The notes under the pieces are model-generated. The model was not told the DNA's origin and ran no database searches. It saw only the letters and a list, made by a program, of their open reading frames with translations. From positions 1 through 53,111 of the IMG/VR virus record IMGVR_UViG_3300035492_000099: a DNA stretch of 53,111 nucleotides. One strand, written 5' to 3'. Below, in pieces: positions 1,107 to 51,564 of the stretch. The translations under genes and the position numbers were made by a program. Positions within the stretch are counted from its first letter, which is position 1. Every line of letters begins with the position of its first letter. The stretch is from a virus. Taxonomy: Duplodnaviria; Caudoviricetes.

Positions 1107-2564
1107 TTAGTTTTCTAAATTGCTGATAGAATTATCTTGTTTTGCAGCAGAATCTGATGTACCATTAGAACTTCCTTTAGACATTCCACCTGAAGCGCCG
1201 GAAGAATATGCTGTAGTTTGCATACGAACATCTTCAATGGTGATATCTGTATTATCAAATGCTTTGGGTAATCCAGCTTGTTCGTGTAAGAAATTAACTG
1301 CGTCTGCATCAAATTTCAAACCACCAACAGAAGCAATACGTTGAACATATTTAGAAAGTTCATCAAGAGAAGTATCTTGACTATTAACAAAATCAAAATA
1401 AGGCATGACATCCGTATTCCAACCATTCAACATGAATAATTGCTTCACAAGATCATGATTTAACTGGTCACGAAGCTCTTTCAGTCGAGCACTAATGACT
1501 GTCTTGGTGAGATGTTCTAGATTTTCGGCAAGAGCAAAACTTCCCGATCCATCTTGCCCGAGAGTGAGCATGGGACAGAGTAATCCAGTCACCACTTCTT
1601 TCCTATATCTTGAAATGACTTTATCAACATCGTGTGTAGCTTGTCCCATTACAGATTTCAGTTCAAAATCAAATAGGGGTTTACCACTGTCGTCGTAAGC
1701 CATTGGAAGAAGAACACCAGATTGTTCTCCAGCATGTAAACTTCTTAGAATTTCTCTAAATGCTTCTGCTGTTTGTTTTTCATCCTCTGAAGCATCTTCA
1801 TTAAGATAACGAGGAGGAATTTTAATAACCTTCAACCCACGCAAATCTTGTGCAATGGACGTAGATTCATACCGCTCTAATTCACTTTTAAATCTCCAAG
1901 CGACATATACAGAATTGAGTGGAGATGTTCCAATTGGACTATCTTTCTGTGGATCAGCACGGAATAGAATAAATTTATTACGAGGAATATCAACTTTTTG
2001 TTGTGTATATGAAACACTGAAATCATTATCCCATTTCGGAATATTAATCCATTGTTTCAACCCTTGTAATGATCTTCCTGATTCATCCCAATACCAAGAA
2101 GCAATGGTTTCTTGTGAAATAAGAGGAAGACTTTTTATTCCAATTAATCCATCATTATATTTACTACCGTTTGCTTTTGTTCTTCTTCGATAAACCTTTT
2201 CAACAGGAGCAAATCCATATCTATTGAATGTAGCAGATTGTCGAATAAAATCATTCCATGTATGTTCCATGTCAGACATCACTGACCTTAGAAAATCTGC
2301 TTTTTCTTTTAATTGTTCTTCATACCCTTCTGGAATTTTAACAACCCACTCTGCTTTTCCTATATCCATTTCCATTAGGTTGAGTGCAGGAGCAATTGTT
2401 GCATCCTTGAACATCACTTTGTATGTTTCCATACACCACGGCCATCGGAGGTCTGTATTCATCTCCTCCATGATCTGTCCAGCAGACACTTTCAAGCCAT
2501 TGTATGATTTTTGCCCCTTAGCCATTCTAAGAGGGGCATTTTCAATATTATCTTCTAAAGCCAT
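1107..2564 (-). CDS. Portal protein
   Basis: 485 aa after terL; YGFAPVEKVY, SPIGTSPL, GSGSFALAE motifs typical of DUF935-like myovirus portals. Confidence 0.88.
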   Translation of the reverse strand: MALEDNIENAPLRMAKGQKSYNGLKVSAGQIMEEMNTDLRWPWCMETYKVMFKDATIAPALNLMEMDIGKAEWVVKIPEGYEEQLKEKADFLRSVMSDMEHTWNDFIRQSATFNRYGFAPVEKVYRRRTKANGSKYNDGLIGIKSLPLISQETIASWYWDESGRSLQGLKQWINIPKWDNDFSVSYTQQKVDIPRNKFILFRADPQKDSPIGTSPLNSVYVAWRFKSELERYESTSIAQDLRGLKVIKIPPRYLNEDASEDEKQTAEAFREILRSLHAGEQSGVLLPMAYDDSGKPLFDFELKSVMGQATHDVDKVISRYRKEVVTGLLCPMLTLGQDGSGSFALAENLEHLTKTVISARLKELRDQLNHDLVKQLFMLNGWNTDVMPYFDFVNSQDTSLDELSKYVQRIASVGGLKFDADAVNFLHEQAGLPKAFDNTDITIEDVRMQTTAYSSGASGGMSKGSSNGTSDSAAKQDNSISNLEN

Positions 2565-2581
2565 ATCTCAATATTGCCCCT

Positions 2582-4096
2582 TTATTTAAATGGATTAGAC
2601 ACACGCATATCTTGCGTGAATGATGTTAATTGTTTACCAATATTTCCAATATTTTCTCTACTAGAAGCTAGGACATAGAATGCATCGGAACATGCGTCAA
2701 CGATGTCGTCATGGCCCGATTCTCCCTTCTTTCTTTCTCCTGTAAAGTTTTCTAATTCCTTGTATACAAAAGAAAGATCGTCGTAGAATTTATTTTCAAA
2801 ATCTGTTCCACAGTTAGAAACAAACTGTATACCACCGTTTTGAGCCATACTAGAAAACGGCCTAAACCTCTCTAGTTTAGACCTATTGGTTGATATTTTT
2901 TTAACCCACAATCCGTTTTCAGAAAGTTGTCTAGCAAACATGTCTGTTGCTCTTCTACTCGCTGCACCGGGGTCAAGAGGCAGGTAATATGATGTATTTG
3001 ATGGGTCATTAAAAGAACAATCCATTACAAATTGTTCCCAATCTCCTGCACGGATTCTGGTTCTTCTTACATCATCAATGACATACATACCATTCTTAAG
3101 TTTGTGCATCCTCACACTTGCTGTATAATCTGGTGAAGGGTTACTATCTGATTTTAATGTAACAGCGAAGTCAAAAGTTCTTACTGTTGCAACAATATCC
3201 TCTGGTTCAACAAAAGATATTTCCTCAACCCAAGAACGATTAAAGAATGTACTGTTTTGTTCCCTTGCTTCCCAATCACCCCATAAGTTTCTTCGCTTTT
3301 CAATCTCGGGCATTGCTTCGAGTGACGCAAGATAGCCAGGATTTGATTCAATTAGCGAAGGATTGTCATATATCGTACCAAGCAAACCTTGAACAGATAG
3401 TGGTTTAATCTGTAGATTATGGTCATAATCGAGTTTGGGATTTCCATATTTTTCTATTAGTTCTTCTTTGGAATCACCCCAATATATTTCACCTGCAATT
3501 CGTACAAGCCATCTCACTTTCCCATTTTTCTCTGGATCAGGCATTCCGAATTTTTCATGTCCTTCTGGATACAACCACCAATCAATCCATTTTCTCAAGA
3601 AGTGTGACGGATTCGGGTTACATGTCAACCAAATGGAAGGTGTCATCTTTGCTTTGGTTCTCAATCGAGAAATTAGAAACCAAATATGTGCTTCTTCTGC
3701 GTCTGTGCTCTCATCATAAAATACGCTGGATAATTGTAATCCACGGTATAATTCTGATGATTTGTTATTTTCATAGTGGGAAAAAGAAACACTAGCACCA
3801 GAAGGAAAAACTATTTTCTGATCTTTATATTTTGGTACAACATGGGAATCATATTGTCGATACATATCAAGGGCTTCTTCAAACAAACCACCTGATTTCA
3901 TCAGCGTTGTACTATTTTTACGAATACAATAACCACGATAATAAGGGTCATCCACCCACCTAAGATGTCTCATGAGTCCAATATAGGACTTAGAGCTACC
4001 CATTGCACCACCTGCTATGATTATGTTCGCATCAGAGTTCAAGTATCTCTCTTGGAACTTAGACCTAGGCCCAAGTGTTACAATCTGATCTTCCAT
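2582..4096 (-). CDS. terL: Terminase large subunit
   Basis: Walker A GGAMGSSKS, Walker B FYDES, TCNP motif III, C-terminal nuclease HDDIVDACSDA. Confidence 0.96.
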   Translation of the reverse strand: MEDQIVTLGPRSKFQERYLNSDANIIIAGGAMGSSKSYIGLMRHLRWVDDPYYRGYCIRKNSTTLMKSGGLFEEALDMYRQYDSHVVPKYKDQKIVFPSGASVSFSHYENNKSSELYRGLQLSSVFYDESTDAEEAHIWFLISRLRTKAKMTPSIWLTCNPNPSHFLRKWIDWWLYPEGHEKFGMPDPEKNGKVRWLVRIAGEIYWGDSKEELIEKYGNPKLDYDHNLQIKPLSVQGLLGTIYDNPSLIESNPGYLASLEAMPEIEKRRNLWGDWEAREQNSTFFNRSWVEEISFVEPEDIVATVRTFDFAVTLKSDSNPSPDYTASVRMHKLKNGMYVIDDVRRTRIRAGDWEQFVMDCSFNDPSNTSYYLPLDPGAASRRATDMFARQLSENGLWVKKISTNRSKLERFRPFSSMAQNGGIQFVSNCGTDFENKFYDDLSFVYKELENFTGERKKGESGHDDIVDACSDAFYVLASSRENIGNIGKQLTSFTQDMRVSNPFK

Positions 4097-5482: not shown

Positions 5483-5983
5483 TCATTGTTTTTCAATAAA
5501 TTTTACATATATTGACTTGTATTCTCCATTTTTTCTTAAATTATACTTCACATATTTCCCATTGCTTGTCTCAAATCCTTTTAGAAGATCGTGGTCTTTA
5601 TTGAATACACCTTCTTTATTTAAATAATACCTGCCTTCAAATCCATCAACCCATTTACTGCCGACAGGTAATTGACAAGATGCTTCCGCTTCCCAAACAA
5701 GATTGTCCAAAAGTATGTTTTCTTTGTTTCCATCTTTAAAAGAAACACGGGAAAATAAGAATGGGTTGTCAAGGAATGTAATGGCAACAAGTTTATGCAC
5801 ATAATACCTATCTTTTACACCCCAGTTATCTGATAGATCAATAATGCAGTAACCATCCTTATCGTAATAGTGCTTTAAACGCGTTTTAAGGCCACTAGGA
5901 AGCGTTTTAAACACTTCCCCTTGTGTTGTTATGGAATACACCCCTTCATAGCCTTGTAGCCACTTCTCATTCGTTTCTCGCAT
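5483..5983 (-). CDS. NUMOD4/HNH homing-endonuclease-derived protein, probably catalytically degenerate
   Basis: KWLQGYEGVYSITTQG NUMOD4-like, VHKLVAITFLDNP, VSFKDGNKENILLDNLVW (catalytic His absent); second NUMOD4-like segment at the C-terminus. Confidence 0.7.
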   Translation of the reverse strand: MRETNEKWLQGYEGVYSITTQGEVFKTLPSGLKTRLKHYYDKDGYCIIDLSDNWGVKDRYYVHKLVAITFLDNPFLFSRVSFKDGNKENILLDNLVWEAEASCQLPVGSKWVDGFEGRYYLNKEGVFNKDHDLLKGFETSNGKYVKYNLRKNGEYKSIYVKFIEKQ

Positions 5984-8350: not shown

Positions 8351-8404
8351 AAAGATATGTTGATTGACATATCTTTATCCTGCACCGGGCGAGTGTGCAG
8401 GACT

Positions 8405-8551
8405 ATCATCAAGGCGGCGGCGTGGAAGGACACACACTGAATGGCATCAGCTAGTTCAGCCCCTCATAGGTATGGTGCAAAGTGGGTTCGACTCCCGCCA
8501 GAGGGACGCCACTGAACCAAGCCGGTTTCGAGTCCGGCCCGCCTTGATGGT
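8405..8551 (+). ncRNA. tRNA-like RNA with a second T-arm module nested inside
   Basis: 13-bp closing stem ATCATCAAGGCGG/CCGCCTTGATGGT; terminal T-arm GCCGG-TTTCGAGT-CCGGC; inner GTGGG-TTCGACT-CCCGC. Confidence 0.55.
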
Positions 8552-8575
8552 GGTTGCTCTTAACAGAGTAAGGGT

Positions 8576-8656
8576 TGGCTCTGAATGGCTAGTCAGCAGG
8601 GAGAAATCCTGTCGAAGCTGAATCCAAGCGAAGTTCGATTCTTCGCAGAGACATCA
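8576..8656 (+). ncRNA. Degenerate tRNA-like element
   Basis: T-arm GCGAAG-TTCGATT-CTTCGC, CTCT/AGAG closing stem, CAGG-GAGAAAT-CCTG hairpin; no canonical D-arm or CCA. Confidence 0.4.
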
Positions 8657-8857
8657 TCAAAAACAAATTGGGGCGTCACGGATATGTTGCTCATTCCCTA
8701 GAGCATTATCCGCATCAGGACGGACGGTTAAATTCCGTCATAAAATGTACAAACAATTGGCGAAGTTTGTATTCCTCTTCTCAGCTATGGGATCGTCGTC
8801 CCGAGACAAAAGACCTGTTCTGAAGATTTTAGGGGATTGGATGAACAGCCTTATTTT

Positions 8858-8932: not shown

Positions 8933-9166
8933 ATGACATACGAAGAAGCTATGAATAAGATTGGAAAACATATTGTTATTATTCCTGAAGATGTACATTG
9001 GGAGGATGGATTTAAAGACCCAACAAATTTCTTCTTGACAAATGCCTTTGGTGAGCGTTATTATTTCAAAACTAGGAGCAGGGCTAAAGCCCAAGAGTGG
9101 GCTAATATGCTTTACGGTAATAATTTCTATATTGTTCGTCCTGTGTTGAAGGCGATAACACGATGA
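8933..9166 (+). CDS. Hypothetical protein
   Basis: ATG at 8933 after RBS GGGGAG; coupled to the next gene. Confidence 0.65.
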   Translation: MTYEEAMNKIGKHIVIIPEDVHWEDGFKDPTNFFLTNAFGERYYFKTRSRAKAQEWANMLYGNNFYIVRPVLKAITR

Positions 9167-9570: not shown

Positions 9571-9839
9571 TTACATTAGCTCAAATCGTGATGGATGTTG
9601 CTAACAATGAAAGTCTTTGTTATAATGGACACAGTAGTTTTGTTCTTACACACCTGTCCCTAGAGGATGCAATACAGCTTTGTAAAGATTTAGAAGAAGT
9701 GGATGAAAATCATAATTCCTATACAATTGAGTTGTGGACAGATGGAAGTTTAACAATCTATTGTCAAGATTATTGGAGAAGTGGTGAACACCCTCTTGGT
9801 CATACAGCAAAACTAATACTTTCAGTGGATAGGCCGTGA
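9567..9839 (+). CDS. Hypothetical protein
   Basis: ATGA-coupled ORF within the operon. Confidence 0.6.
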   Translation: MITLAQIVMDVANNESLCYNGHSSFVLTHLSLEDAIQLCKDLEEVDENHNSYTIELWTDGSLTIYCQDYWRSGEHPLGHTAKLILSVDRP

Positions 9840-10393
9840 ATTTTAAATATACAATCTTAGTAATTGGAATTATATTTTCTACTTTTGTTGCTGTTTTGTT
9901 TTATAGTAACCCCGAAAAGAAGTTGACAAGTCAGCCTATTCCTCTTATAATAACTTCTGAAAATGAGTATGATGCAGTTGAATATGGTAAGAGATGGTGC
10001 AAAATAAACAAGGATTGTTCAATCCTCGCGTCTGTGGGCTACTATGAAAGTCGGAATCAAAGTGATGTCGGTGTCATTGGAGTGATGCGAGTGGTTTTAA
10101 ACAGAGTTTCTAATCCTAGGTTCCCAAATACAATAAAAGATGTTGTATATGATGGATGTCAATTTAGTTTTGTGTGTGATGGGTCATTAAATAAAGCAGA
10201 ACAATCACATAAACAGTGGGATAGAATGTATTCTTTAGCTTATCGTGTTTTAGTATTAAAGGAAGGGAAAGGAGACTTCCATTACAGTACACACTACCAC
10301 ACTACAAATGTAAACCCGTTTTGGGCAAAGAAGTTTAAGCCTGTAGTTGTATTGGATGACCATATTTTCTACAGGTGTGTTGGTTATTGTTAA
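9836..10393 (+). CDS. Cell wall hydrolase (SleB/Hydrolase_2 family) with N-terminal membrane anchor
   Basis: YYESRNQ, VVLNRVSNPRFPNTIKDVVY, CQFSF, HYHTTNVNPFWA, HIFY. Confidence 0.9.
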   Translation: MNFKYTILVIGIIFSTFVAVLFYSNPEKKLTSQPIPLIITSENEYDAVEYGKRWCKINKDCSILASVGYYESRNQSDVGVIGVMRVVLNRVSNPRFPNTIKDVVYDGCQFSFVCDGSLNKAEQSHKQWDRMYSLAYRVLVLKEGKGDFHYSTHYHTTNVNPFWAKKFKPVVVLDDHIFYRCVGYC

Positions 10394-10400
10394 GATTTTT

Positions 10401-10436
10401 GCTCCTCAAGCTTAAGTGGTATAAGCGTCCGACTTG
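10401..10436 (+). pseudogene. 5' half of an interrupted tRNA (probably Thr-UGU)
   Basis: Acceptor GCTCCTC, D-arm GCTT-AAGTGGTAT-AAGC, anticodon stem TCCGA then CTTG; matches the 3' half at 10881-10922. Confidence 0.75.
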
Positions 10437-10455
10437 GGGAGCAATGTGAATATAT

Positions 10456-10530
10456 ATCCCCCTAGCTCAATGGGAGAGCAGCGTCCTCATAAGACGTTGG
10501 TACTTGGATCGAAACCAAGGAGGGATACCA
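10456..10530 (+). tRNA. tRNA with CAU anticodon (Met or Ile2)
   Basis: ATCCCCC/GAGGGAT acceptor, GCTC/GAGC D-stem, GCGTC-CTCATAA-GACGT, CTTGG-ATCGAAA-CCAAG, ACCA end. Confidence 0.88.
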
Positions 10531-10544
10531 ATTAGGTAAAGTAA

Positions 10545-10880
10545 ATGAAAGATTATGAATTCAATGGTAAAATTTATAAAATAAGCCAAAACGGTATAGT
10601 TTATTCCCCAACTGGAAAAATTATGGCATTGATTGATAATGGTACTGGGTATTTACAGGTTACATTAAACAGTGGTAATATGAGAAAGAAAATCTATATT
10701 CACAGGTTAGTATGGGAAACTTTTAATGGTCAAATCCCAACCAACTTAGAGGTAGATCATTTGGATGAAAATAAAAGCAATAATAATTTGTCCAATCTAA
10801 CATTAGTTACCAGAAAGGAAAATATGACTAAAATGTTAAAAAGTAATCCACACATACTATTGAACCTTAAACAATATTGA
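10545..10880 (+). CDS. HNH homing endonuclease
   Basis: GYLQVTL, IHRLVWETFNG, EVDHLDENKSNNNLSNL. Confidence 0.9.
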   Translation: MKDYEFNGKIYKISQNGIVYSPTGKIMALIDNGTGYLQVTLNSGNMRKKIYIHRLVWETFNGQIPTNLEVDHLDENKSNNNLSNLTLVTRKENMTKMLKSNPHILLNLKQY

Positions 10881-10922
10881 TAATCGGGTGACAGACAGGT
10901 TCGAGTCCTGCGGGGAGCACCA
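10881..10922 (+). pseudogene. 3' half of the interrupted tRNA
   Basis: TAA-TCGGG anticodon stem 3' side, CAGG-TTCGAGT-CCTG T-arm, GGGGAGC-A-CCA complementary to GCTCCTC at 10401. Confidence 0.75.
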
Positions 10923-10929
10923 AGTAAAT

Positions 10930-11005
10930 GCGTCTGTAGCTCAGTGGATAGAGCAGTTGGTTTCTACCCAACGTGGCGGGGGTTCGAGTCCCTCCAGACG
11001 CGCCA
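10930..11005 (+). tRNA. tRNA-Arg(UCU)
   Basis: GCGTCTG/CAGACGC acceptor, GTTGG-TTTCTAC-CCAAC, GGGGG-TTCGAGT-CCCTC, GCCA end. Confidence 0.93.
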
Positions 11006-11029
11006 GATTTTTAAACAAAAGGAGAAGTT

Positions 11030-11254
11030 ATGAAAGATGTATTTTGGGTGATTTCAATTATTCTGTTTTGGATTTTGATGATTATTTTGGGGCCATATTT
11101 TACAATCATGTCCTTAAATGTTTTATTTGGTACACAAATTGTGTTTAATATCCATTCTTGGCTTTCGTGTTTCTGGTTGGGAACAATGTTTATCTCTTGG
11201 GTGAAAGCCGGAACAAAGATGGCAATTAAAGAAACATCTGAGAATCAAGTATGA
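11030..11254 (+). CDS. Small membrane protein
   Basis: RBS AGGAGA; two hydrophobic segments. Confidence 0.65.
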   Translation: MKDVFWVISIILFWILMIILGPYFTIMSLNVLFGTQIVFNIHSWLSCFWLGTMFISWVKAGTKMAIKETSENQV

Positions 11255-11481
11255 ATATTGTAATTTATAAAGGTGAGATCATTTATGAAGATGAGGGGTG
11301 GGAAATTCTCACCTATCCATCTAAAGCACATAAGGATGTCTTGTTGAAGGATGATCGTGAGTGCCTTCTGGATGCTTTGGAAGCCACAGGATACGATGTT
11401 GCACGATTGCAGCAATTTAAGACAGAAGAGCTAGAGCAATTCTGTTTATCCCGTGGAATGTACGTACAATTGATTGATTAA
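11251..11481 (+). CDS. Hypothetical protein
   Basis: ATGA-coupled ORF. Confidence 0.6.
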   Translation: MNIVIYKGEIIYEDEGWEILTYPSKAHKDVLLKDDRECLLDALEATGYDVARLQQFKTEELEQFCLSRGMYVQLID

Positions 11482-11499
11482 GGATAGAGGAACACATTT

Positions 11500-12396
11500 A
11501 TGAATATGATTATTGTCGGGAGTGTGGCAGGAATGAAGCATAAGTGTGTTCCTCCACGAAAATTAAAAGATGTTGATGTTATTGGAGAATATGCTTCAAC
11601 CAAAGCATTTGCATCCTCCTTTGGAGAAATCAATGAGGAAAAGGAGACAGCAAAGGGAACAATCTTTTTCACAGAGAACATGATTGTTGAATTGGAGGAT
11701 ATTGACAAATCTGAACATAGTAGTAGACTATTTTCCGATATGCAGAAGGATGCAGTTGACAAAGTGTATGCCTCTGCTGAATGGCTCTACTTCTTTAAGT
11801 TGTCCCATCGTTTCAAGAAGGATAGCCCTCACTTCTGGAAAACAGTGAGAGATATTTTCTACATGCGAAGCAAAGGAATCACCCTTCCTAACAATTCTGA
11901 AGGTTTGATGAAGGAAAGGGAGGAGTTGACATACACAAACAAACTCCCTAAACTCAATGTAAAGAAAACAGATTTCTTTAAAGAAGAGGAAGTATATTGG
12001 AAGTACGAGCACGATGACATCCACGTTGCTGTAAAACTATATGACAAGCCTGCATACACATACTTTCTAAAAGACGGTGAAGAAGTTATGACTGATAAAA
12101 ATAAATTCTTTTCTCTACCAAAGGATATTCAACTTGCATCTTGTTGTGAGGAAGCCATTACACTCACAGCAGAGCGTAGTTTAATTCCATTTGACTTCAG
12201 ACCTGATCCAGATAAGATGTTTCTGTTTTCATTGATGAAGGTATGCACAAGTATTACATCCGGGTATTTTAGGGAATTCTCGTATGATAATATTTATGAT
12301 ATTATCAAGATGTATGATCAGAAGTACAAGGGTTGGTGGGTAGACAAAGTGAAGGAGGGTATTTCAAATGGCTCTATCAGAGAGGTACAAAATTAA
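11500..12396 (+). CDS. Phage protein with Pol-beta-like nucleotidyltransferase signature
   Basis: N-terminal IVGS...KDVDVI (hGS...DhD); HDDIH; SITSGYFREF. Confidence 0.55.
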   Translation: MNMIIVGSVAGMKHKCVPPRKLKDVDVIGEYASTKAFASSFGEINEEKETAKGTIFFTENMIVELEDIDKSEHSSRLFSDMQKDAVDKVYASAEWLYFFKLSHRFKKDSPHFWKTVRDIFYMRSKGITLPNNSEGLMKEREELTYTNKLPKLNVKKTDFFKEEEVYWKYEHDDIHVAVKLYDKPAYTYFLKDGEEVMTDKNKFFSLPKDIQLASCCEEAITLTAERSLIPFDFRPDPDKMFLFSLMKVCTSITSGYFREFSYDNIYDIIKMYDQKYKGWWVDKVKEGISNGSIREVQN

Positions 12397-35405: not shown

Positions 35406-37577
35406 TTAGCCGCTACAGGCTACACAATCATCCTCTCGTTCTTTCACTGAACGAATATAATAGATGGTTTTTAATCGTTTGTCAAACGCATAGTGGATTG
35501 CATCATACAAATCTTTAGCATTGAAGCCCTGCTTGTTCTGATCGAACATGAGTTCCATACTAATTCCTGTATCCACCCACTTTTGCATCTCTGCAACAGC
35601 ATCAATAATCTCCTTAGCATCAAATTGAGATTGTGTTTTCATATAACCAATTGGGTTTTCCTTTAGGAAACGAGAACCCACCTTCAATAACCCATTTTTA
35701 TTGTCCTCCGCAAAGAATGCTTTAAACACAGGCTGAACAGAGGCAGAAGCATCTTGATAGATTGATGTACTCGTTGTTGGTGCTGGACTTGTCAATTGAC
35801 TATTGAAAATTCCATGCTCATCAATTTGTTGTTGCAAATAACCCCAATCACATTTACCACCATGCGAAGCAAATCGTTTTGTCATGTTGCCATTCTTCCA
35901 TTCTGAAACATCATATGCTTCAAACGTCCCATGTTTCTTGGCAAGATCAACACTTTCCAATGCTGCGTTATATTCAATCACTTCAAACATATCAGAGATT
36001 GTTTCAAGATCATCAAATGTCTTATACTCCCTTGCAAGATAGTCATGAATCCCCATCACTCCAATTCCAATAGTGCGGTAGCGTTTGTTATGTGCTTCTG
36101 TAATCTCATTGGGATTTTTTGTTAAATCAACCCCACGATTTAAAATACGACACGCCATGCGTGATACATAAGCAAGATCATCAAAATCTTTGATATTCCC
36201 CATGTTAATACTACCAAGATTGCATACATGTCCGTATACATCTGGCTTTACATTTGAATACGATTCCGTACAAAGGTTTGCGCAAGGGATTCCATATGCT
36301 TCTTTATCCCCTTTATTTGGATTCGCTTCATTCATCCTATCTGTAAAAGCAAGGTAAGGTAAGCCAGTCTCAAACTGAATACGCATGATCTGTTTCATAA
36401 TGTCACGAGCATTGGGAATGATCGAGGACACTTTCAACTTTCCAGATTGTGCTGCTTGTTCAATCTGCAAATAAGCTTTTGTAAAATCTTCTCCATATAG
36501 CCCACGAACATCAATACCAAGCTTTTGTTTCACTTCAAACGGGCAGAACAACACCCACTGCTGTTGATTCTTGTCTCGTTCCATGAACACATCAGGGACA
36601 GTGATTTGTGGGAATACATCATATGCTTTCATACGAATATCCCCATGTTCTGTTTGCATGTTAAGGAAATCGAACAAATCATTATGCCAAATTGGAAGGG
36701 CAACCGTACCAGCACCAGCACGTTTACCTCCCTGATTTACAGCAACGAGGGTGTCATTGAAAATCTTAACCCATTGAACAATACTCCCTGCTGCATTCTC
36801 GTTTCCATTGACAACACTCCCCTTTGCTCGAAGATAGCCTAAGAAAATACCAATACCGCCACCATTCTTGCTAATCTCGGCAACACGCTTAACATTGTCG
36901 AAGATGGAGGAAAGGTCATCTTCAACTGAAACAATAAAACAAGAAGCTGTGTTACCACCATGCCTCAGATTCAGCATGAAAGGCGTAGCCAAACTGAACT
37001 TCCTATTAGACAGGATATCATAAACAGATTTTACAAACTCCATGCGGGTTTCTACTGGCTCCGCTTGACCAAATCGCATGGCATTTCCCATGTGCATAAT
37101 CTGGTTCACTTCATTCTTCCCGAGATATTTCTGCTTTGCTGTTAACAAAGAGGCATATGAATGGTTCAAATCCCTATTGTAATCAATATACCTTCCCAGA
37201 ACATCTAAGTCATCATCTGTGTAGTAATCTAACACCTGTTTAGTCCAAACACCCTTAGAACAAGCATGTTTCGCCCATTGATTAAAAGTTTTCCCTTTCT
37301 GCAAAAAAGAATGAAATTCATCCATTGCGAAAGCATGTCCGGCAACCATTAACCACTCTGGGTTGCTCGCAGTGGCAAGTTGCAAAGCGTGTTGAATAAT
37401 ATTCGCTTGAATTTCTTGTGTTTTAATACCGTTTTTAACAAAGTAGTCAATCCTTGATTCCAACTCCAAAGGGTTAGCATCCGTTCCTTCGCAAGCATAC
37501 GCAATACTTCGTTTCACTTTTAAAATATCAAATTCTTCTTTTTCCCCATTTCGTTTTGTTACTAGAATATTTTTCAA
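35406..37577 (-). CDS. nrdA: Ribonucleotide reductase class I alpha subunit with ATP cone
   Basis: VTKRNGEKE ATP cone, ASCF, QGGKRAGA, NLCTE, CNLGS, PTTSTS, KTIYY, C-terminal CVAC. Confidence 0.96.
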   Translation of the reverse strand: MKNILVTKRNGEKEEFDILKVKRSIAYACEGTDANPLELESRIDYFVKNGIKTQEIQANIIQHALQLATASNPEWLMVAGHAFAMDEFHSFLQKGKTFNQWAKHACSKGVWTKQVLDYYTDDDLDVLGRYIDYNRDLNHSYASLLTAKQKYLGKNEVNQIMHMGNAMRFGQAEPVETRMEFVKSVYDILSNRKFSLATPFMLNLRHGGNTASCFIVSVEDDLSSIFDNVKRVAEISKNGGGIGIFLGYLRAKGSVVNGNENAAGSIVQWVKIFNDTLVAVNQGGKRAGAGTVALPIWHNDLFDFLNMQTEHGDIRMKAYDVFPQITVPDVFMERDKNQQQWVLFCPFEVKQKLGIDVRGLYGEDFTKAYLQIEQAAQSGKLKVSSIIPNARDIMKQIMRIQFETGLPYLAFTDRMNEANPNKGDKEAYGIPCANLCTESYSNVKPDVYGHVCNLGSINMGNIKDFDDLAYVSRMACRILNRGVDLTKNPNEITEAHNKRYRTIGIGVMGIHDYLAREYKTFDDLETISDMFEVIEYNAALESVDLAKKHGTFEAYDVSEWKNGNMTKRFASHGGKCDWGYLQQQIDEHGIFNSQLTSPAPTTSTSIYQDASASVQPVFKAFFAEDNKNGLLKVGSRFLKENPIGYMKTQSQFDAKEIIDAVAEMQKWVDTGISMELMFDQNKQGFNAKDLYDAIHYAFDKRLKTIYYIRSVKEREDDCVACSG

Positions 37578-37996
37578 TCTTCTTCTCCATGTGAAATAAT
37601 ATCTAAATGTTCATCAAATAATTCATACTCTTCTCTACTTACACGCATTTTCTCTATTGTCATTGCTGTGTAATTTGGTAGAGAAGAAATTCTTGTCAAT
37701 TCTTCTTGCAATGCAAGGTCTTTCGTCCCCACTTTCTCTATCTTATTCTCAAGTGTGCAATATTCACTTTTGAGCCATTCGTTGTCCCCTCTTTCACTCC
37801 CAACCCACCTTCCAGAATAATAAACATCGTTATCAATCATTGCCCTGTGAAAGCAAATCTGATAGTCAATAGGTTGTTTAATATCAAACCCTATGTTGTG
37901 TAATAGCACAACAAATTCTGCTTTATTGCCGCTTTGAACAATATCCCTACTTTCAGGGAATGAAAGAAGGTCAATAACACTAATTGCTCTGTGCAT
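37574..37996 (-). CDS. Hypothetical protein
   Basis: RBS AAGGAGAGG; between thyX and nrdA. Confidence 0.7.
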   Translation of the reverse strand: MHRAISVIDLLSFPESRDIVQSGNKAEFVVLLHNIGFDIKQPIDYQICFHRAMIDNDVYYSGRWVGSERGDNEWLKSEYCTLENKIEKVGTKDLALQEELTRISSLPNYTAMTIEKMRVSREEYELFDEHLDIISHGEED

Positions 37997-38005
37997 AACC
38001 TCTCC

Positions 38006-38683
38006 TTATTTTGTAAGCATTTCCTCTAAGAAAGGAAACTTCTCAACCACCGCTTCTTTAATAGCACGAGCTAGATATACATGCTCTCGTTGTGTAACAC
38101 CCTCATCATCTCTCACATTCAAATATGTGATAACACTGCGAATTGTTGCATTCAAATACATATAACTCATTGTATTTCCTTCTGGAAGAATTACACGAGC
38201 ACATTCTTTGGCAATATTGTTATCAATAGCCCATTTGTAATTCTCTTGAACTAAATCCAACACTTCTTGTTGCCTACGACCCCACTCTTCTTGAAGAGAA
38301 TTATCATCAATGATAACACTATTCTGACGATTTTTCTTATCCTGTAAACGTGCTTCGCGGATAACAAATTGCTGTGCTTCAGCATATCTTTGACTAAACT
38401 CTTGAAACTTCATAGAGCTATGTCGCAACACTTGTCTTGCAATGTCTCGTGGAACCTCTACTTCAACAACTACGTTAGCCATATCAAACACAGACCAGTG
38501 TTGATTACGCATACAATACTTTAGAAGCCCTGCTGCTGAATCAAAGTTTGTTTGATTTGATGGATTACTAACACGAGCACAATAACTGATAATTCCTTCA
38601 CTATCAGGAATAAAATCAACCACTGGCACTGTGACTCCTATCAAACGTGCTTTGATGAAATCATAATTCATATCACTCTGCAT
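38006..38683 (-). CDS. thyX: Flavin-dependent thymidylate synthase
   Basis: HWSVF, QVLRHSSMKFQEFSQRY, AKECARVILP. Confidence 0.95.
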   Translation of the reverse strand: MQSDMNYDFIKARLIGVTVPVVDFIPDSEGIISYCARVSNPSNQTNFDSAAGLLKYCMRNQHWSVFDMANVVVEVEVPRDIARQVLRHSSMKFQEFSQRYAEAQQFVIREARLQDKKNRQNSVIIDDNSLQEEWGRRQQEVLDLVQENYKWAIDNNIAKECARVILPEGNTMSYMYLNATIRSVITYLNVRDDEGVTQREHVYLARAIKEAVVEKFPFLEEMLTK

Positions 38684-40981: not shown

Positions 40982-41533
40982 TTATTCTCCTTTCTTTAAA
41001 ATATCTTCTATCTGCTTCCTACGCTTCACCTGTGTGCTTTCTGGAACAACGCCACGATCTTCAAGCCAAAGTCTGTCCTTTTTTTCTTTAACTATTTTGA
41101 TTGCCGTCTTTTCAGCTAAAGCATCTTCAAAAGAGATTCCCTTCTTATCTGCATAAGCTAAGGAAGAGTTGCAATTCTTACACACAAGCCGTAAATCGTC
41201 CTTTGTAATGAAAAGGAGCCGTTCTACAAACCCTTGTATATCTTCCTTTCTTTGTAGACTCCCTGCCGGGACAACGTGATCTACTTGTCCCTCTCTCATG
41301 GGGAATGTACCTCCACACATCTCACAATCAAACCCCCACACAGTGGGACGGTTTCCTCTTGGGTTGGGGTTGGGTATTTGATATCTCCTACTATTGAGTA
41401 AAGTTATTTTAATCGGATTAGTTGACCAAGCCTTTCTAAGACAACCTCTCAGATACGTATAGAACGCCACTGAATTTTTCCAAGGGGTTCCTTCCCCCCA
41501 AGGTATTTTATTTTCTTTTTCTTTCTTTTCCAT
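40982..41533 (-). CDS. HNH-type endonuclease of the replication module
   Basis: CEMC, QVDH, LRLVCKNC. Confidence 0.75.
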   Translation of the reverse strand: MEKKEKENKIPWGEGTPWKNSVAFYTYLRGCLRKAWSTNPIKITLLNSRRYQIPNPNPRGNRPTVWGFDCEMCGGTFPMREGQVDHVVPAGSLQRKEDIQGFVERLLFITKDDLRLVCKNCNSSLAYADKKGISFEDALAEKTAIKIVKEKKDRLWLEDRGVVPESTQVKRRKQIEDILKKGE

Positions 41534-49285: not shown

Positions 49286-50227
49286 ATGTTCATGTCAATT
49301 TCAAATAAAGGAAAGACAATGAACAACCAACATATGAAAGAATTCGTAGAAAACAATCCTCACGTTGTAATGATGAAGCCTACAAGCAAGGAAGGGCTGT
49401 ATGTATTGAAATATCGAAAGAAAGTATTCTATGACAACCTATGGACTCCAGAGCTAGAGCTTTGTCGTGGAACAATCGTAGATAAAGATTTCAATGTTGT
49501 ATCACTTCCCTTCACAAAGATTTACAATTATGGAATTGAAGATAAGGCTCCTGTTCTATCTCCAGACACAGTGGTGACAGCCTATCGTAAGGTCAATGGC
49601 TTCATGGCAGCTATTACATGGCATGATGGAGACATCCTTGTTTCAACAACAGGAAGTATTGATAGTGTTTATGTGCAATATGTAAAGGATACGATGTTAT
49701 TTCATGCTTCTTGGGAGGAGTGGAAAAATGCCTTGCAATTATATCAATGTCAGACATTCCTGTTCGAATGTGTTCATCCCAGTGACCCACACATTATACT
49801 TGAGGATGATGGGTTGCATTACTTGGGACATCGAAATAAAGATTGGGATTCTCCTGTAATACATCCTGATATTGGAAACATTGGATGGTCAGTGTGTCGC
49901 TTTCTAGGAACATATTTTGAAGAAGGATTTAAAACCTCTCTTGAAAATATTCTCACCCTAACCAAGAGTGTAGGACATGAGGGGTTTGTTTGTTACACAG
50001 AAGATGGAACAGCGTTTAAAATTAAATCACCTTATTATCTGATTAAGAAATTCTTTGCTCGTTGCAATAATACATCAAAACTGTTGCATCCAAACGTCAA
50101 AGATAAATTTGATGAAGAATATTATCCACTCATTGACCATATTCGTGCTAATATTGAATTGTTTAGAAGCATGGAAGAACAGGAACGTTTGACATACATA
50201 CGTAATTTTCTTTCAGAAATGGATTAG
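49286..50227 (+). CDS. RNA ligase 1 (T4 Rnl1-like)
   Basis: CRGTIVD, PFTKIYNY, RKVNG (motif I), STTGS, FLFEC, EGFV, FKIKS; start may be the ATG at 49319. Confidence 0.85.
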   Translation: MFMSISNKGKTMNNQHMKEFVENNPHVVMMKPTSKEGLYVLKYRKKVFYDNLWTPELELCRGTIVDKDFNVVSLPFTKIYNYGIEDKAPVLSPDTVVTAYRKVNGFMAAITWHDGDILVSTTGSIDSVYVQYVKDTMLFHASWEEWKNALQLYQCQTFLFECVHPSDPHIILEDDGLHYLGHRNKDWDSPVIHPDIGNIGWSVCRFLGTYFEEGFKTSLENILTLTKSVGHEGFVCYTEDGTAFKIKSPYYLIKKFFARCNNTSKLLHPNVKDKFDEEYYPLIDHIRANIELFRSMEEQERLTYIRNFLSEMD

Positions 50228-50346
50228 AGGCTGTAGGAAGCGTTTACATGCTTCCTCCCTATACAACACATCAGATTTCAATTTAAACCTCGTAGAGAGG
50301 CTATAGACGCTTCCTAGAGGCATTTGCATTTAAAGGAGAATAATCA

Positions 50347-50904
50347 ATGGCACTATTCGTTACATCAGACCTGCATTTTGGACATAAGAATCTTCTAAAA
50401 TTCTGTCCTGATAGTCGTCCATTCTCATCTGTTGAGGAAATGAATGAAGCCATCATCAATCGACACAATTCTCTTGTGTCTCCACAAGACACAACATACA
50501 TGCTTGGTGATATTGCTTTTTGTTCTGGAGGTGATGCTGCTAAAATGATTAACAGGATGAATGGAAAGAAGATTCTGATTGTTGGAAATCATGACAAGGC
50601 TAATTTAAAACAGCCATCTTTTCGCGCTGCTTTTGAAGAGATTCGTGACTATCTTTCGATTCGTCTTCCAGCTTTTGATAATCTGAAAGTGTGCATGTTC
50701 CACTTTCCCATTTACTCGTGGGATGAACAGCACTACGGAAGCATCCACTTACACGGTCACTTGCATGGGAAACCCACAGGGTTGAAAGGACGTATCATGG
50801 ATGTTGGTCTTGACACAAATAATTGTCACCCTCATCGTCTTGAAGATGTTGTTAAGGAAATGTTGGCAATTCAATTTAAAAATGAATGGAAGGATGGAAA
50901 ATGA
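50347..50904 (+). CDS. Calcineurin-like metallophosphoesterase
   Basis: TSDLHFGH, LGD, GNHD, HFP, HGHLH, DVGLD. Confidence 0.9.
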   Translation: MALFVTSDLHFGHKNLLKFCPDSRPFSSVEEMNEAIINRHNSLVSPQDTTYMLGDIAFCSGGDAAKMINRMNGKKILIVGNHDKANLKQPSFRAAFEEIRDYLSIRLPAFDNLKVCMFHFPIYSWDEQHYGSIHLHGHLHGKPTGLKGRIMDVGLDTNNCHPHRLEDVVKEMLAIQFKNEWKDGK

Positions 50905-51149
50905 TAATTTGGTATCCAATAGAAACAGCCCCGAAGGACAATCAATATCCTCTTTATTTGGCAAGTTTTGATGAGCATGGAAATCTTCTAGAAATAGATT
51001 TTGATGGTAGTTGGGAGTATTGGCAAGAAAGCCACGAGCTTCCGCACATCAATGGATTTTGTTGGGTAAGTAACAATGGTATTGAAGAGCCTACGCATTG
51101 GACTTACCAAGAAAACTTTTTACGTAAGGATGTATCAAATGATTCCTAA
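50886..51149 (+). CDS. Hypothetical protein (WxPIETAPKD family)
   Basis: WYPIETAPKD...PTHW. Confidence 0.65.
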   Translation: MEGWKMIIWYPIETAPKDNQYPLYLASFDEHGNLLEIDFDGSWEYWQESHELPHINGFCWVSNNGIEEPTHWTYQENFLRKDVSNDS

Positions 51150-51564
51150 ACTGATTCTTATTCGTGGACTGCCCGGAAGTGGGAAGACTACACTCGCTAT
51201 GGAAGTATCTCTATTTAGTGAAAATTGGGTGCATTACGAAGCAGACCATTATTTCATGGACGAGGATGGAAATTACAATTTTAATGCAAATAAGCTGCGC
51301 CTTGCACATATTGTTTGCCAAGAGGGAGTGGTATACGCTTTAGAACGAGGATTTAACGTTGTTGTGTCAAACACCTTCACAACACTGAAGGAGTTGAAGC
51401 CCTATTTCCTTATTGCAAAGGAATTTGGAATTGTCCCTTCTGTTGTACATTGTCAACATTCTTTTGGTAGTGTACATGATATTCCACAAGAAATAATTGA
51501 CAAGATGAAAGCTCGTTGGCAGAATGATGTTTCTAGGTTATATGATATTCTGATGGAGGATTGA
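51076..51564 (+). CDS. P-loop kinase (AAA_33 / polynucleotide-kinase-like)
   Basis: IRGLPGSGKTT, EADHYF, VSNTFT, SVHDIP; real start probably near 51130. Confidence 0.8.
   Translation: MVLKSLRIGLTKKTFYVRMYQMIPKLILIRGLPGSGKTTLAMEVSLFSENWVHYEADHYFMDEDGNYNFNANKLRLAHIVCQEGVVYALERGFNVVVSNTFTTLKELKPYFLIAKEFGIVPSVVHCQHSFGSVHDIPQEIIDKMKARWQNDVSRLYDILMED

Follow-up and report, generated by a model that had tools for sequence, protein, structure and literature searches.

What becomes of a tRNA gene when a second tRNA gene and an endonuclease gene lie between its two halves? We addressed this question at positions 10401–10922 (plus strand) of the virus record IMGVR_UViG_3300035492_000099, a single metagenome-type phage contig of 53,111 bp and 37% G+C, the whole of which was analysed and is called the window here. 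At this locus the two parts of a gene that family comparison identifies as a tRNA(CAU) flank an intact tRNA(CAU) and a gene for a small HNH endonuclease. We consider it likely that an intron-less homing-endonuclease cassette disrupted its target tRNA(CAU) and brought a replacement isoacceptor tRNA with it. The broken halves of the target gene are most likely dead remains.

By direct reading, the 5′ part of the interrupted gene (10401–10435) is GCTCCTC-AA-GCTT-AAGTGGTAT-AAGC-G-TCCGA-CT-T and comprises the acceptor 5′ strand, the D arm, the 5′ strand of the anticodon stem, C32, U33 and a final T10435. The 3′ part (10880–10922) is ATAA-TCGGG-TGACAG-ACAGG-TTCGAGT-CCTGC-GGGGAGC-A-CCA and supplies A35, U36, A37 and A38, the 3′ strand of the anticodon stem, the variable loop, the T arm and the acceptor 3′ strand, with the discriminator A (A73) and CCA completing the 3′ end. 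The acceptor strands GCTCCTC/GGGGAGC pair at 7/7 positions and the anticodon-stem strands TCCGA/TCGGG at 5/5, each with one G-U pair. Between the two parts lies an insert of 444 bp (10436–10879) that comparison with other contigs finds missing from close relatives. It opens with GGGGAGCA (10436–10443; repeat family D11, inverted repeat I8), a second copy of the gene's own acceptor 3′ strand and discriminator, followed by ATGTGAATATAT and then by an intact passenger tRNA with anticodon CAT (10456–10530, Met2). A spacer of 14 nt separates this tRNA from the gene for a 111-residue HNH_3 endonuclease (10545–10880), whose TGA stop codon (10878–10880) is formed by two bases at the end of the insert plus the base that begins the 3′ part. 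The original prediction, made from the sequence alone, had described a tRNA split at its anticodon by a 444-bp insert, an intact tRNA(CAU) and an HNH open reading frame (ORF) within that insert, a stop codon abutting the 3′ half and the recurrence of GGGGAGCA directly after the 5′ half. This anatomy held, with pairing of the stems and homology of both parts to one tRNA family in its favour.

The identity of the interrupted tRNA had been given as tRNA-Thr(UGU) or, with an alternative junction, tRNA-Ile(GAU). ARAGORN called no tRNA across the split gene in any of 3/3 intron settings, and ARAGORN and Rfam alike called only the inner tRNA(CAT) and a tRNA-Arg at the locus. When the halves were joined by script, ARAGORN called 11 of the 192 joins as tRNAs: Ile GAT (five), Pro TGG (three), Ile TAT, Thr TGT and Pro GGG. 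Since the anticodon merely tracks the junction chosen, and since ARAGORN is permissive on such joins, these calls alone prove little. The unusual D arm AAGCTTAAGTGGTATAAGC was found in 50 IMG/VR loci, called by ARAGORN as tRNA(CAT) in 23 and tRNA-Asn(GTT) in 19, with 8 uncalled. Among the 19 distinct IMG/VR tRNA(CAT) sequences of this family, 27 nt of the 5′ part (10408–10434) are identical in five (L023, L026, L031, L062 and L034) and 15 nt of the 3′ part (10880–10894) in three (L023, L026 and L031). Family members read ...GTCCGACT-C-ATAATCGGGTGACAG..., and the window is without exactly the wobble base C34, its place being occupied by T10435 with the insert behind it.

We built a covariance model (R1) from these 19 sequences. 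Its score for 10401–10443 was 30.0 bits (E = 6e-7), the segment being taken for a tRNA without its inner arms, and for the 3′ part alone 10.9 bits (E = 0.59); the inner tRNA scored 47.2 bits and the tRNA-Arg 40.6 bits. The closest intact homologue of the split gene, IMG/VR locus L034, is identical to the two parts at 32/34 and 36/44 positions and is followed 6 nt on by a tRNA-Arg(TCT). The split gene itself is no contiguous CAT-anticodon gene, with C34 missing and 444 bp between its parts, and at its anticodon position the family members and the insert-less relatives described below all have CAT. By this comparison the interrupted gene is a tRNA(CAU) with the same anticodon as the insert's own tRNA, and the split tRNA is real, well above chance resemblance. 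The Thr(UGU) and Ile(GAU) identities are thereby ruled out, as is Pro(UGG). The tRNAs of the two nearest sequenced phages, Pseudomonas phage vB_PsaM_M1 (Pro, Asn and Thr) and Pseudaeromonas phage KLEP7 (Thr), are dissimilar to the halves. The odd T stem of the split gene (GACAGG versus CCTGC) also occurs in the intact alleles of relatives and is thus no sign of decay.

Both cargo genes of the insert are intact. The passenger tRNA, called by ARAGORN and scored at 50.3 bits by the Rfam tRNA model, shares ~89% identity with the tRNA-Met that in Alcaligenes phage CASP1 lies 3 nt ahead of a tRNA-Arg(TCT). Its anticodon arm is GCGTCCTCATAAGACGT, unlike the CCGACTCATAATCGG of the proposed target genes. 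A CAU tRNA is paired with tRNA-Arg(UCU) in the window, L034, CASP1, ZC03 and L037, and in T4-like phages a CAU tRNA beside Arg(UCU) is listed as a lysidine-type tRNA-Ile in two reports (PMC1524935; PMC2330249). In 24 long ORFs of the window phage, the frequency per 1000 codons is 8.9 for AUA and 10.1 for AGA. The HNH ORF matches PF13392 with 71 bits (E = 6.2e-20) over profile positions 2–45 of 46, and in PHROGs it matches phrog_59 (3.4e-32) and phrog_959 (4.2e-28). It aligns through the C-terminus of its best homologues, including those of phages KP13-26 and Milchi, and is thus not truncated. The minus strand of the window has two further HNH-family ORFs, at 5483–5983 (phrog_959, 1.4e-20) and 40982–41533 (phrog_1985, 2.3e-63). 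Aligned to the 10545–10880 protein, the first of these seems to be without the catalytic His of the DH motif.

Is the insert an intron? In Rfam searches at E ≤ 10 with 4227 families, over 10000–11400 and 10395–10930, tRNA was the only family matched, with no group I or group II intron and no ribozyme, and the group I core P3–P9 (RF00028) was undetected in the insert at the same threshold; the earlier observation that there is no group I core is thus borne out. The same search detected group I introns in the tRNA genes of loci L037 (62.4 bits) and L123 (89.9 bits), which shows that it works on such loci. A true intron of an unrecognised kind, self-spliced or factor-spliced, whose homing enzyme would be the HNH protein and whose cargo would be the inner tRNA, would nevertheless account for some features of the site. 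A U (T10435) ends the 5′ exon and a G (G10879) ends the insert, in keeping with the group I boundary rule, which is weak on its own. The position in the anticodon loop is that of bacterial tRNA group I introns, and a genuine group I intron lies 2 nt off in the related tRNA(CAU) of L123. Beyond the silence of Rfam in both search regions, such an intron would have to be built from the ~33 nt that the insert holds outside its tRNA and ORF, too little for a catalytic core, and splicing at U/A would give the anticodon UAU, found in 0/50 family loci. We regard an intron of this kind as very unlikely.

Relatives with and without the insert establish its direction of change. Parts of the stretch are contained in eight public sequencing runs, none of them on record as RNA, and contigs of four of these (X2–X5) were compared over 9800–11600. 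The X5 contig (2879 nt) aligns to 10370–10423 with 5 differences and to 10893–11226 with 16, none of them before 11059. In place of the 469 nt that it skips stand 24 other letters, which contain a CAT loop of the CTCATAA type, and the contig covers the 3′ end of an endolysin-like gene (10370–10400) ahead of its intact tRNA. The X4 contig matches 10893–11048 with 0 differences, and its overhang shows, as in X5, an intact and well-formed arm, CCGTC-CTCATAA-GACGG. The insert-less order is thus endolysin end, intact tRNA(CAU) and tRNA-Arg(UCU), without an HNH gene or a second tRNA. The tRNA-Arg(UCU) of the window (10930–11005, plus strand; ARAGORN; Rfam 67.7 bits) is the conserved downstream neighbour of the split gene, 7 nt beyond its 3′ part. 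Two other samples carry the insert. The X2 contig crosses the right junction 10879/10880 (10837–11016) with 0 differences, and X3 carries 10436–10774 with 1 difference, while a second X3 contig crosses the right junction (10863–11039) with 9 differences, all at or after 10924, so that the insert and 3′ part are identical there and the neighbouring tRNA-Arg has diverged.

Taken with L034, the insert-less relatives with an intact tRNA(CAU) indicate that the contiguous gene is the older state and the 444 bp a gain. The near-identical insert beside a diverged tRNA-Arg in X3 suggests spread of the insert, and we count it in favour of a mobile cassette. The comparison with insert-less relatives that the original prediction had called for thus delivered, in X5, an intact tRNA(CAU) followed by tRNA-Arg(UCU); an exact empty site it did not deliver. 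Other routes to relatives gave less. An IMG/VR search for syntenic relatives based on the endolysin returned 3 loci at 35–53% identity, none with tRNAs; a search with the DUF7275 protein returned no close phage; and exact-pattern scans found no match for the 5′ part in IMG/VR or for the 3′ part in IMG/VR and JGI metagenomes. Aligned with positions 1576–1652 of the CASP1 locus (L007), the window tRNA-Arg(TCT) (10930–11005) shows shared acceptor, D and T arms and a quite different anticodon arm, and a like pattern is seen between the broken tRNA(CAU) of the window and the intact X4 and X5 alleles. These alignments suggest that anticodon arms are exchanged, or that they diversify more quickly than the other parts of the tRNA.

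Homologues of the endonuclease point in the same direction. At 4/4 of the closest annotated or readable homologue loci (44–54% identity) a tRNA lies within 35 nt. In Pseudomonas phage Milchi a tRNA-Met(CAT) is followed after 6 nt by the HNH homologue, in Salmonella phage Maynard the homologue overlaps the 5′ end of a tRNA-Met(CAT) by 10 nt, in Klebsiella phage KP13-26 it lies between an unannotated tRNA-like gene and a tRNA-Leu, and in a jumbo Klebsiella phage (L123, OU509535.1) it starts 18 nt after a tRNA(CAU). The unannotated KP13-26 gene (L066, 1304–1402), directly upstream of the HNH homologue, is 99 nt long, scores 39.2 bits with the Rfam tRNA model and has the loop CTTATAC and a long extra arm. 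The L123 tRNA(CAU), at 742–1040, is likewise unannotated and missed by ARAGORN, and an HNH_3 ORF (~1058–1480) and a tRNA-Asn directly follow it. Its group I intron separates the exons ...CCGACTCAT and AATCGG..., directly after CAT. Joined, these exons rebuild the 15-mer CCGACTCATAATCGG, and the window insert breaks the same 15-mer two bases upstream. From this shared sequence we infer that the HNH clade recognises the anticodon-arm DNA of tRNA(CAU), in which case intron and cassette would each protect their carrier by breaking the site.

Nested arrangements also occur elsewhere. The 25-mer of the passenger's anticodon arm was found at one IMG/VR locus (L068) and five JGI loci, of which one is nested (L121, the same sequence as L068) and four are stand-alone tRNAs. 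In L068 the 5′ part of a tRNA(CAT) with the loop CTCATAA begins at 170, an HNH ORF of another family (phrog_2255, 5.2e-27) runs from 256 to ~664, and an intact tRNA(CAT) at 666–740 shares the 25-nt anticodon-arm core of the passenger. A T arm and AGAGGGC-A-CCA then form the 3′ end, pairing 7/7 with the 5′ part. Judged by this layout, L068 is a second, independent nested arrangement. We also ran, on 121 loci and the window, a script that looks for an acceptor strand with D arm and a T arm with acceptor strand separated by more than 120 nt; it matched the window, L068/L121 and L037, plus two places in L048. In L037 an HNH_3 ORF (Pfam, 6.9e-8) lies alone, without a ribozyme, inside a tRNA that has no 3′ anticodon-stem strand and is thus plainly dead; a tRNA-Arg(TCT) lies upstream and a family tRNA(CAT) 19 nt downstream. 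By these loci, endonuclease genes inside phage tRNA genes without a ribozyme are not unique to the window.

Two side observations concern the same loci. The L048 matches were rejected as cross-pairings among three paralogous long tRNA-like units, with no split gene. These units (2300–3011, minus strand) share an acceptor stem (AGTCAGG/CCTGACT) and a T arm and have differing inner segments (~100–170 nt); a tRNA-Met(CAT) lies between two of them, and none was called by ARAGORN. In L037 (1–520 and 535–1200), a tRNA-Leu(UAA)-like gene with the group I intron already mentioned (10–258) precedes the split tRNA by a few hundred bases.

We propose the following course of events. A resident phage tRNA(CAU) gene would have lain between the endolysin-like gene and tRNA-Arg(UCU) when the 444-bp cassette, a second tRNA(CAU) with a small HNH_3 gene, invaded it at the wobble position. 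The HNH protein would nick or cut the uninterrupted tRNA(CAU) genes of co-infecting relatives that bear the anticodon arm CCGACTCATAATCGG, and repair of the break would copy the cassette in. Insertion would split the recognition site and so render the carrier immune, at the cost of destroying the tRNA as well. The passenger tRNA(CAU), with its other anticodon arm (GCGTCCTCATAAGACGT), would stay uncut and could supply the lost decoding, and the halves of the old gene would be the remains of a young pseudogene in which decay has not begun. The HNH message may be cut out of the tRNA precursor, as PMC2330249 proposes for segB.

The original prediction had offered two possibilities, one of them a homing cassette that brought in a tRNA and wrecked its target, for which it drew a comparison with T4 SegB. 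This is the possibility favoured here by the presence of the insert in X2 and X3 versus its absence from X5, by an intact HNH ORF with its catalytic domain, and by the place of its nearest homologues in tRNA clusters; cleavage specificity, homing itself and the role of the passenger tRNA as a replacement we infer. With no ribozyme core and the wobble base lost, the host gene is predicted to be inactivated. A wider claim is that this is one case of a recurrent and so far undescribed homing strategy, "replace what you break", in which an intron-less HNH gene and a cleavage-immune isoacceptor tRNA(CAU) insert into resident tRNA(CAU) genes. A ribozyme would then be unnecessary, since the cassette brings its own spare of the gene that it destroys. 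We put this claim forward tentatively, as a possibility that we hold to be somewhat doubtful.

Several observations weigh against a homing cassette with a replacement tRNA. The insertion is untidy, with C34 lost and GGGGAGCA at the start of the insert, which a simple one-step insertion does not explain. No exact empty site was found, the X4 and X5 alleles differing from the window across the whole anticodon arm (24–25 other letters in place of 10424–10892), so that the target allele has to be deduced from L034, L023 and L123. Among more distant IMG/VR homologues of the HNH protein (36–49% identity), 0/13 distinct loci matched by tblastn have a tRNA within 250 nt, and on this count the tRNA link holds for the nearest HNH clade only. 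A BLAST comparison of the passenger and L034 tRNAs with E. coli genomes, made to distinguish Met from Ile2, gave no match at E ≤ 0.01. The undecayed state of both halves fits youth but equally fits maintenance. Finally, the left junction 10435/10436 is spanned by none of the X2–X5 contigs and is seen in the window assembly only. The window being a single 53-kb metagenome-type contig, a wrong join during assembly could have created that junction. However, contigs of two other samples (X2 and X3) cross the right junction, and no repeat longer than 8 nt is common to both sides of the left one, a length much shorter than assembler words; we consider an artefact extremely improbable.

The repeats around the left junction bear on how the present arrangement arose. 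GGGGAGCA is present at 10436–10443 and 10912–10919, and the chance of such an 8-base copy at the start of the insert is ~7e-4. With 10433–10435 (CTT) added, it pairs with the 5′ part in a 10-bp hairpin (−17.3 kcal/mol, z −3.18) that was equalled in 0/200 shuffles, which agrees with the earlier remark that the 5′ half could close on itself. A second repeat, AAGTAAATG, stands just after both CCA ends (10539 and 10922), and TTG precedes both insert junctions. Repeats of 8–9 nt are expected by chance in 800 AT-rich bases, in which five such families were found, and thus what stands out is the location of the 8-mer alone. Microhomology-mediated repair or a SegB-like duplication may have left these repeats as scars, or the hairpin may have a role of its own.

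These repeats are also the starting point for a different history, of endonuclease-driven duplication and decay with no single insertion. Its ancestor would have held the full target gene, a spacer, the passenger tRNA and the HNH gene. A microhomology-mediated segmental duplication would have put a second 3′ portion of the target gene behind the HNH gene, and the first copy, broken later at its anticodon, would have lost positions 35–65 in the repair. Positions 10401–10443 would then be the target gene with an inner deletion and 10880–10922 the same gene without its 5′ part, and the functional outcome would be the same: dead halves and a live passenger tRNA. In its favour, 10401–10443 scores with R1 as a tRNA that has its acceptor stem and D arm and has its inner arms deleted, and GGGGAGCA, AAGTAAATG and the junction TTG are all duplicated. 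An X3 contig starts at exactly 10436, which could mark a second upstream context of GGGGAGCAATG.... There is also a precedent, described in PMC13096335, in which SegB drives the tandem amplification of a unit of tRNA and endonuclease genes by way of microhomology that a tRNA 5′ end has with the segB 3′ end. However, duplication and decay needs two exactly complementary deletions (35–65 in one copy, 1–34 in the other), and the proposed ancestral order gave 0 matches in exact-pattern scans of IMG/VR and JGI. Repeats of this length are, as noted, to be expected by chance, and the end of the low-depth X3 contig may be random. We judge this history unlikely.

Could the halves still yield a tRNA? 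The second possibility of the original prediction was that they are released by processing and joined by the phage's Rnl1-like ligase; paired through their stems and sealed, they would give a tRNA(UAU) or similar. The halves are complete but for C34, their stems are intact, and the minimum-energy fold of 10401–10922 (522 nt) pairs the two acceptor strands. An Rnl1-like ligase is encoded in the window, with a phosphoesterase and a kinase-like ATPase adjoining. However, that fold is no better than shuffles (z −0.77), and the GGGGAGC close by is the preferred partner of the 5′ half. Cleavage by RNase P at 10455/10456 would give a 5′ half with a 20-nt trailer and a 3′ half still led by the entire HNH message (~350 nt); no element was seen that would trim either to the 34/35 junction. 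Since C34 is missing, no junction restores CAU. The comparable split tRNA of L037 is without one stem strand, and a ligase, phosphoesterase and kinase set (Rnl1/Pnkp in T4) is the usual phage repair kit against host anticodon nucleases. Release and ligation of the halves is thus unsupported, and we hold a working split tRNA to be highly improbable. The possible RNA-repair genes stand in a row at 49286–51564 and match phrog_562 (ligase, 9.8e-47), phrog_547 (phosphoesterase), and phrog_2071 and phrog_505 (kinase-like ATPase).

Archaeal split and permuted tRNA genes, such as those of Nanoarchaeum equitans (PMC3400036), have leaders and trailers that are complementary to each other, along with a bulge-helix-bulge motif and a splicing endonuclease. 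As in those genes, two gene pieces of the window meet in the anticodon loop and form a cloverleaf together. None of the three features was seen in the folds and ORFs analysed. Folds of the precursor and its borders gave no helix joining the insert ends and no bulge-helix-bulge motif, and no tRNA splicing endonuclease was found in the 55 window ORFs scanned against PHROGs, out of 89 listed ORFs of at least 55 amino acids plus one shorter.

Comparison with known mobile endonuclease genes shows what the cassette shares with each. T4 SegB, a GIY-YIG enzyme, and T5 F-TflI/II/IV are encoded by free-standing homing endonuclease genes in phage tRNA clusters. Like these, the window has an endonuclease gene packed among tRNA genes and a tRNA that travels with the nuclease, and its site, as in the SegB case, is a tRNA(CAU) beside tRNA-Arg(UCU). 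Unlike SegB, its nuclease is of the HNH_3 type, with cleavage that is predicted only, and its cassette lies inside a tRNA gene, splitting it, whereas segB lies between genes. With the group I introns of tRNA genes (tRNA-Leu UAA and tRNA-Ile CAU types) the insert shares an anticodon-loop site in a tRNA(CAU), the U before it, the G at its end and an associated HNH gene, and L123 provides the canonical group I form in a tRNA with the same anticodon arm as the split gene. Unlike those introns, the window insert is without a ribozyme core, lies 2 nt off the L123 site, comes with loss of the wobble base and carries a whole tRNA. Intron-less or collaborative homing is reportedly practised by T4 mobE with I-TevIII, and is said to link cyanophage F-CphI with a psbA intron. 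As in these two cases, the window would combine a free-standing HNH gene, a target in a conserved gene and a carrier made immune by an interrupted or variant target; unlike them, the immune copy of the target rides inside the cassette, which lands inside the sensitive copy. The literature that we searched (supplements and subscription journals excluded) describes no tRNA gene split by an intron-less endonuclease cassette that carries another tRNA.

The replication genes of the window are nearest those of KLEP7 and vB_PsaM_M1 (Ounavirinae), with 70–74% amino-acid identity in the primase-helicase, and the host is judged to be bacterial from the cell-wall hydrolase and from relatives that infect Pseudomonas and Pseudaeromonas. 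This hydrolase is the endolysin-like ORF (9836–10393, plus strand; PF07486, 1.2e-20), which ends 7 nt upstream of the split gene. A perfect TTGACA-17-TATAAT promoter-like site (9923–9951, 12/12 in the promoter scan) lies inside it, within the first 40 codons of its GTG-started frame; as its relatives align from residue 55 only, its true start may be downstream of this site. Transcription of the split-tRNA locus probably comes from upstream. Further upstream, 8370–8760 is G+C-rich and without good ORFs and has several T-arm-like and acceptor-like motifs. The family model gave weak matches at 8433–8506 (10.9 bits), 8577–8653 (12.6 bits) and 9080–9143 (15.2 bits), and neither ARAGORN nor Rfam made a call in the 8370–8760 region, which may be an eroded tRNA cluster or encode unusual tRNA-like RNAs. 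Elsewhere, thymidylate-synthase similarity extends over two adjoining minus-strand ORFs (37574–38683), namely 38006–38683 (phrog_85) and 37574–37996 (phrog_3506).

Homing endonuclease genes usually spare their carrier by lying inside a self-splicing intron or intein, or between genes. The window element lies inside a structural RNA gene, without a ribozyme and with what would be a second copy of that gene's function. Were it merely a fresh insertional pseudogene, it would be no more than what the movement of endonuclease genes through tRNA clusters ordinarily leaves behind. Should the passenger tRNA be a component of the cassette that is under selection, the element would represent a third way for homing elements to invade useful genes, and phage tRNA sets would have a simple route to being shuffled, duplicated and eroded. 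For annotation, broken tRNAs such as this one and the intron-bearing tRNA(CAU) of L123 escape standard tRNA finders. If such cassettes do replace what they break in this manner, the anticodon arms of phage tRNA(CAU) genes would diversify under endonuclease pressure, and this pressure would explain why close relatives can differ in a whole arm yet remain 90–100% identical in the remainder of the tRNA and in its flanks.

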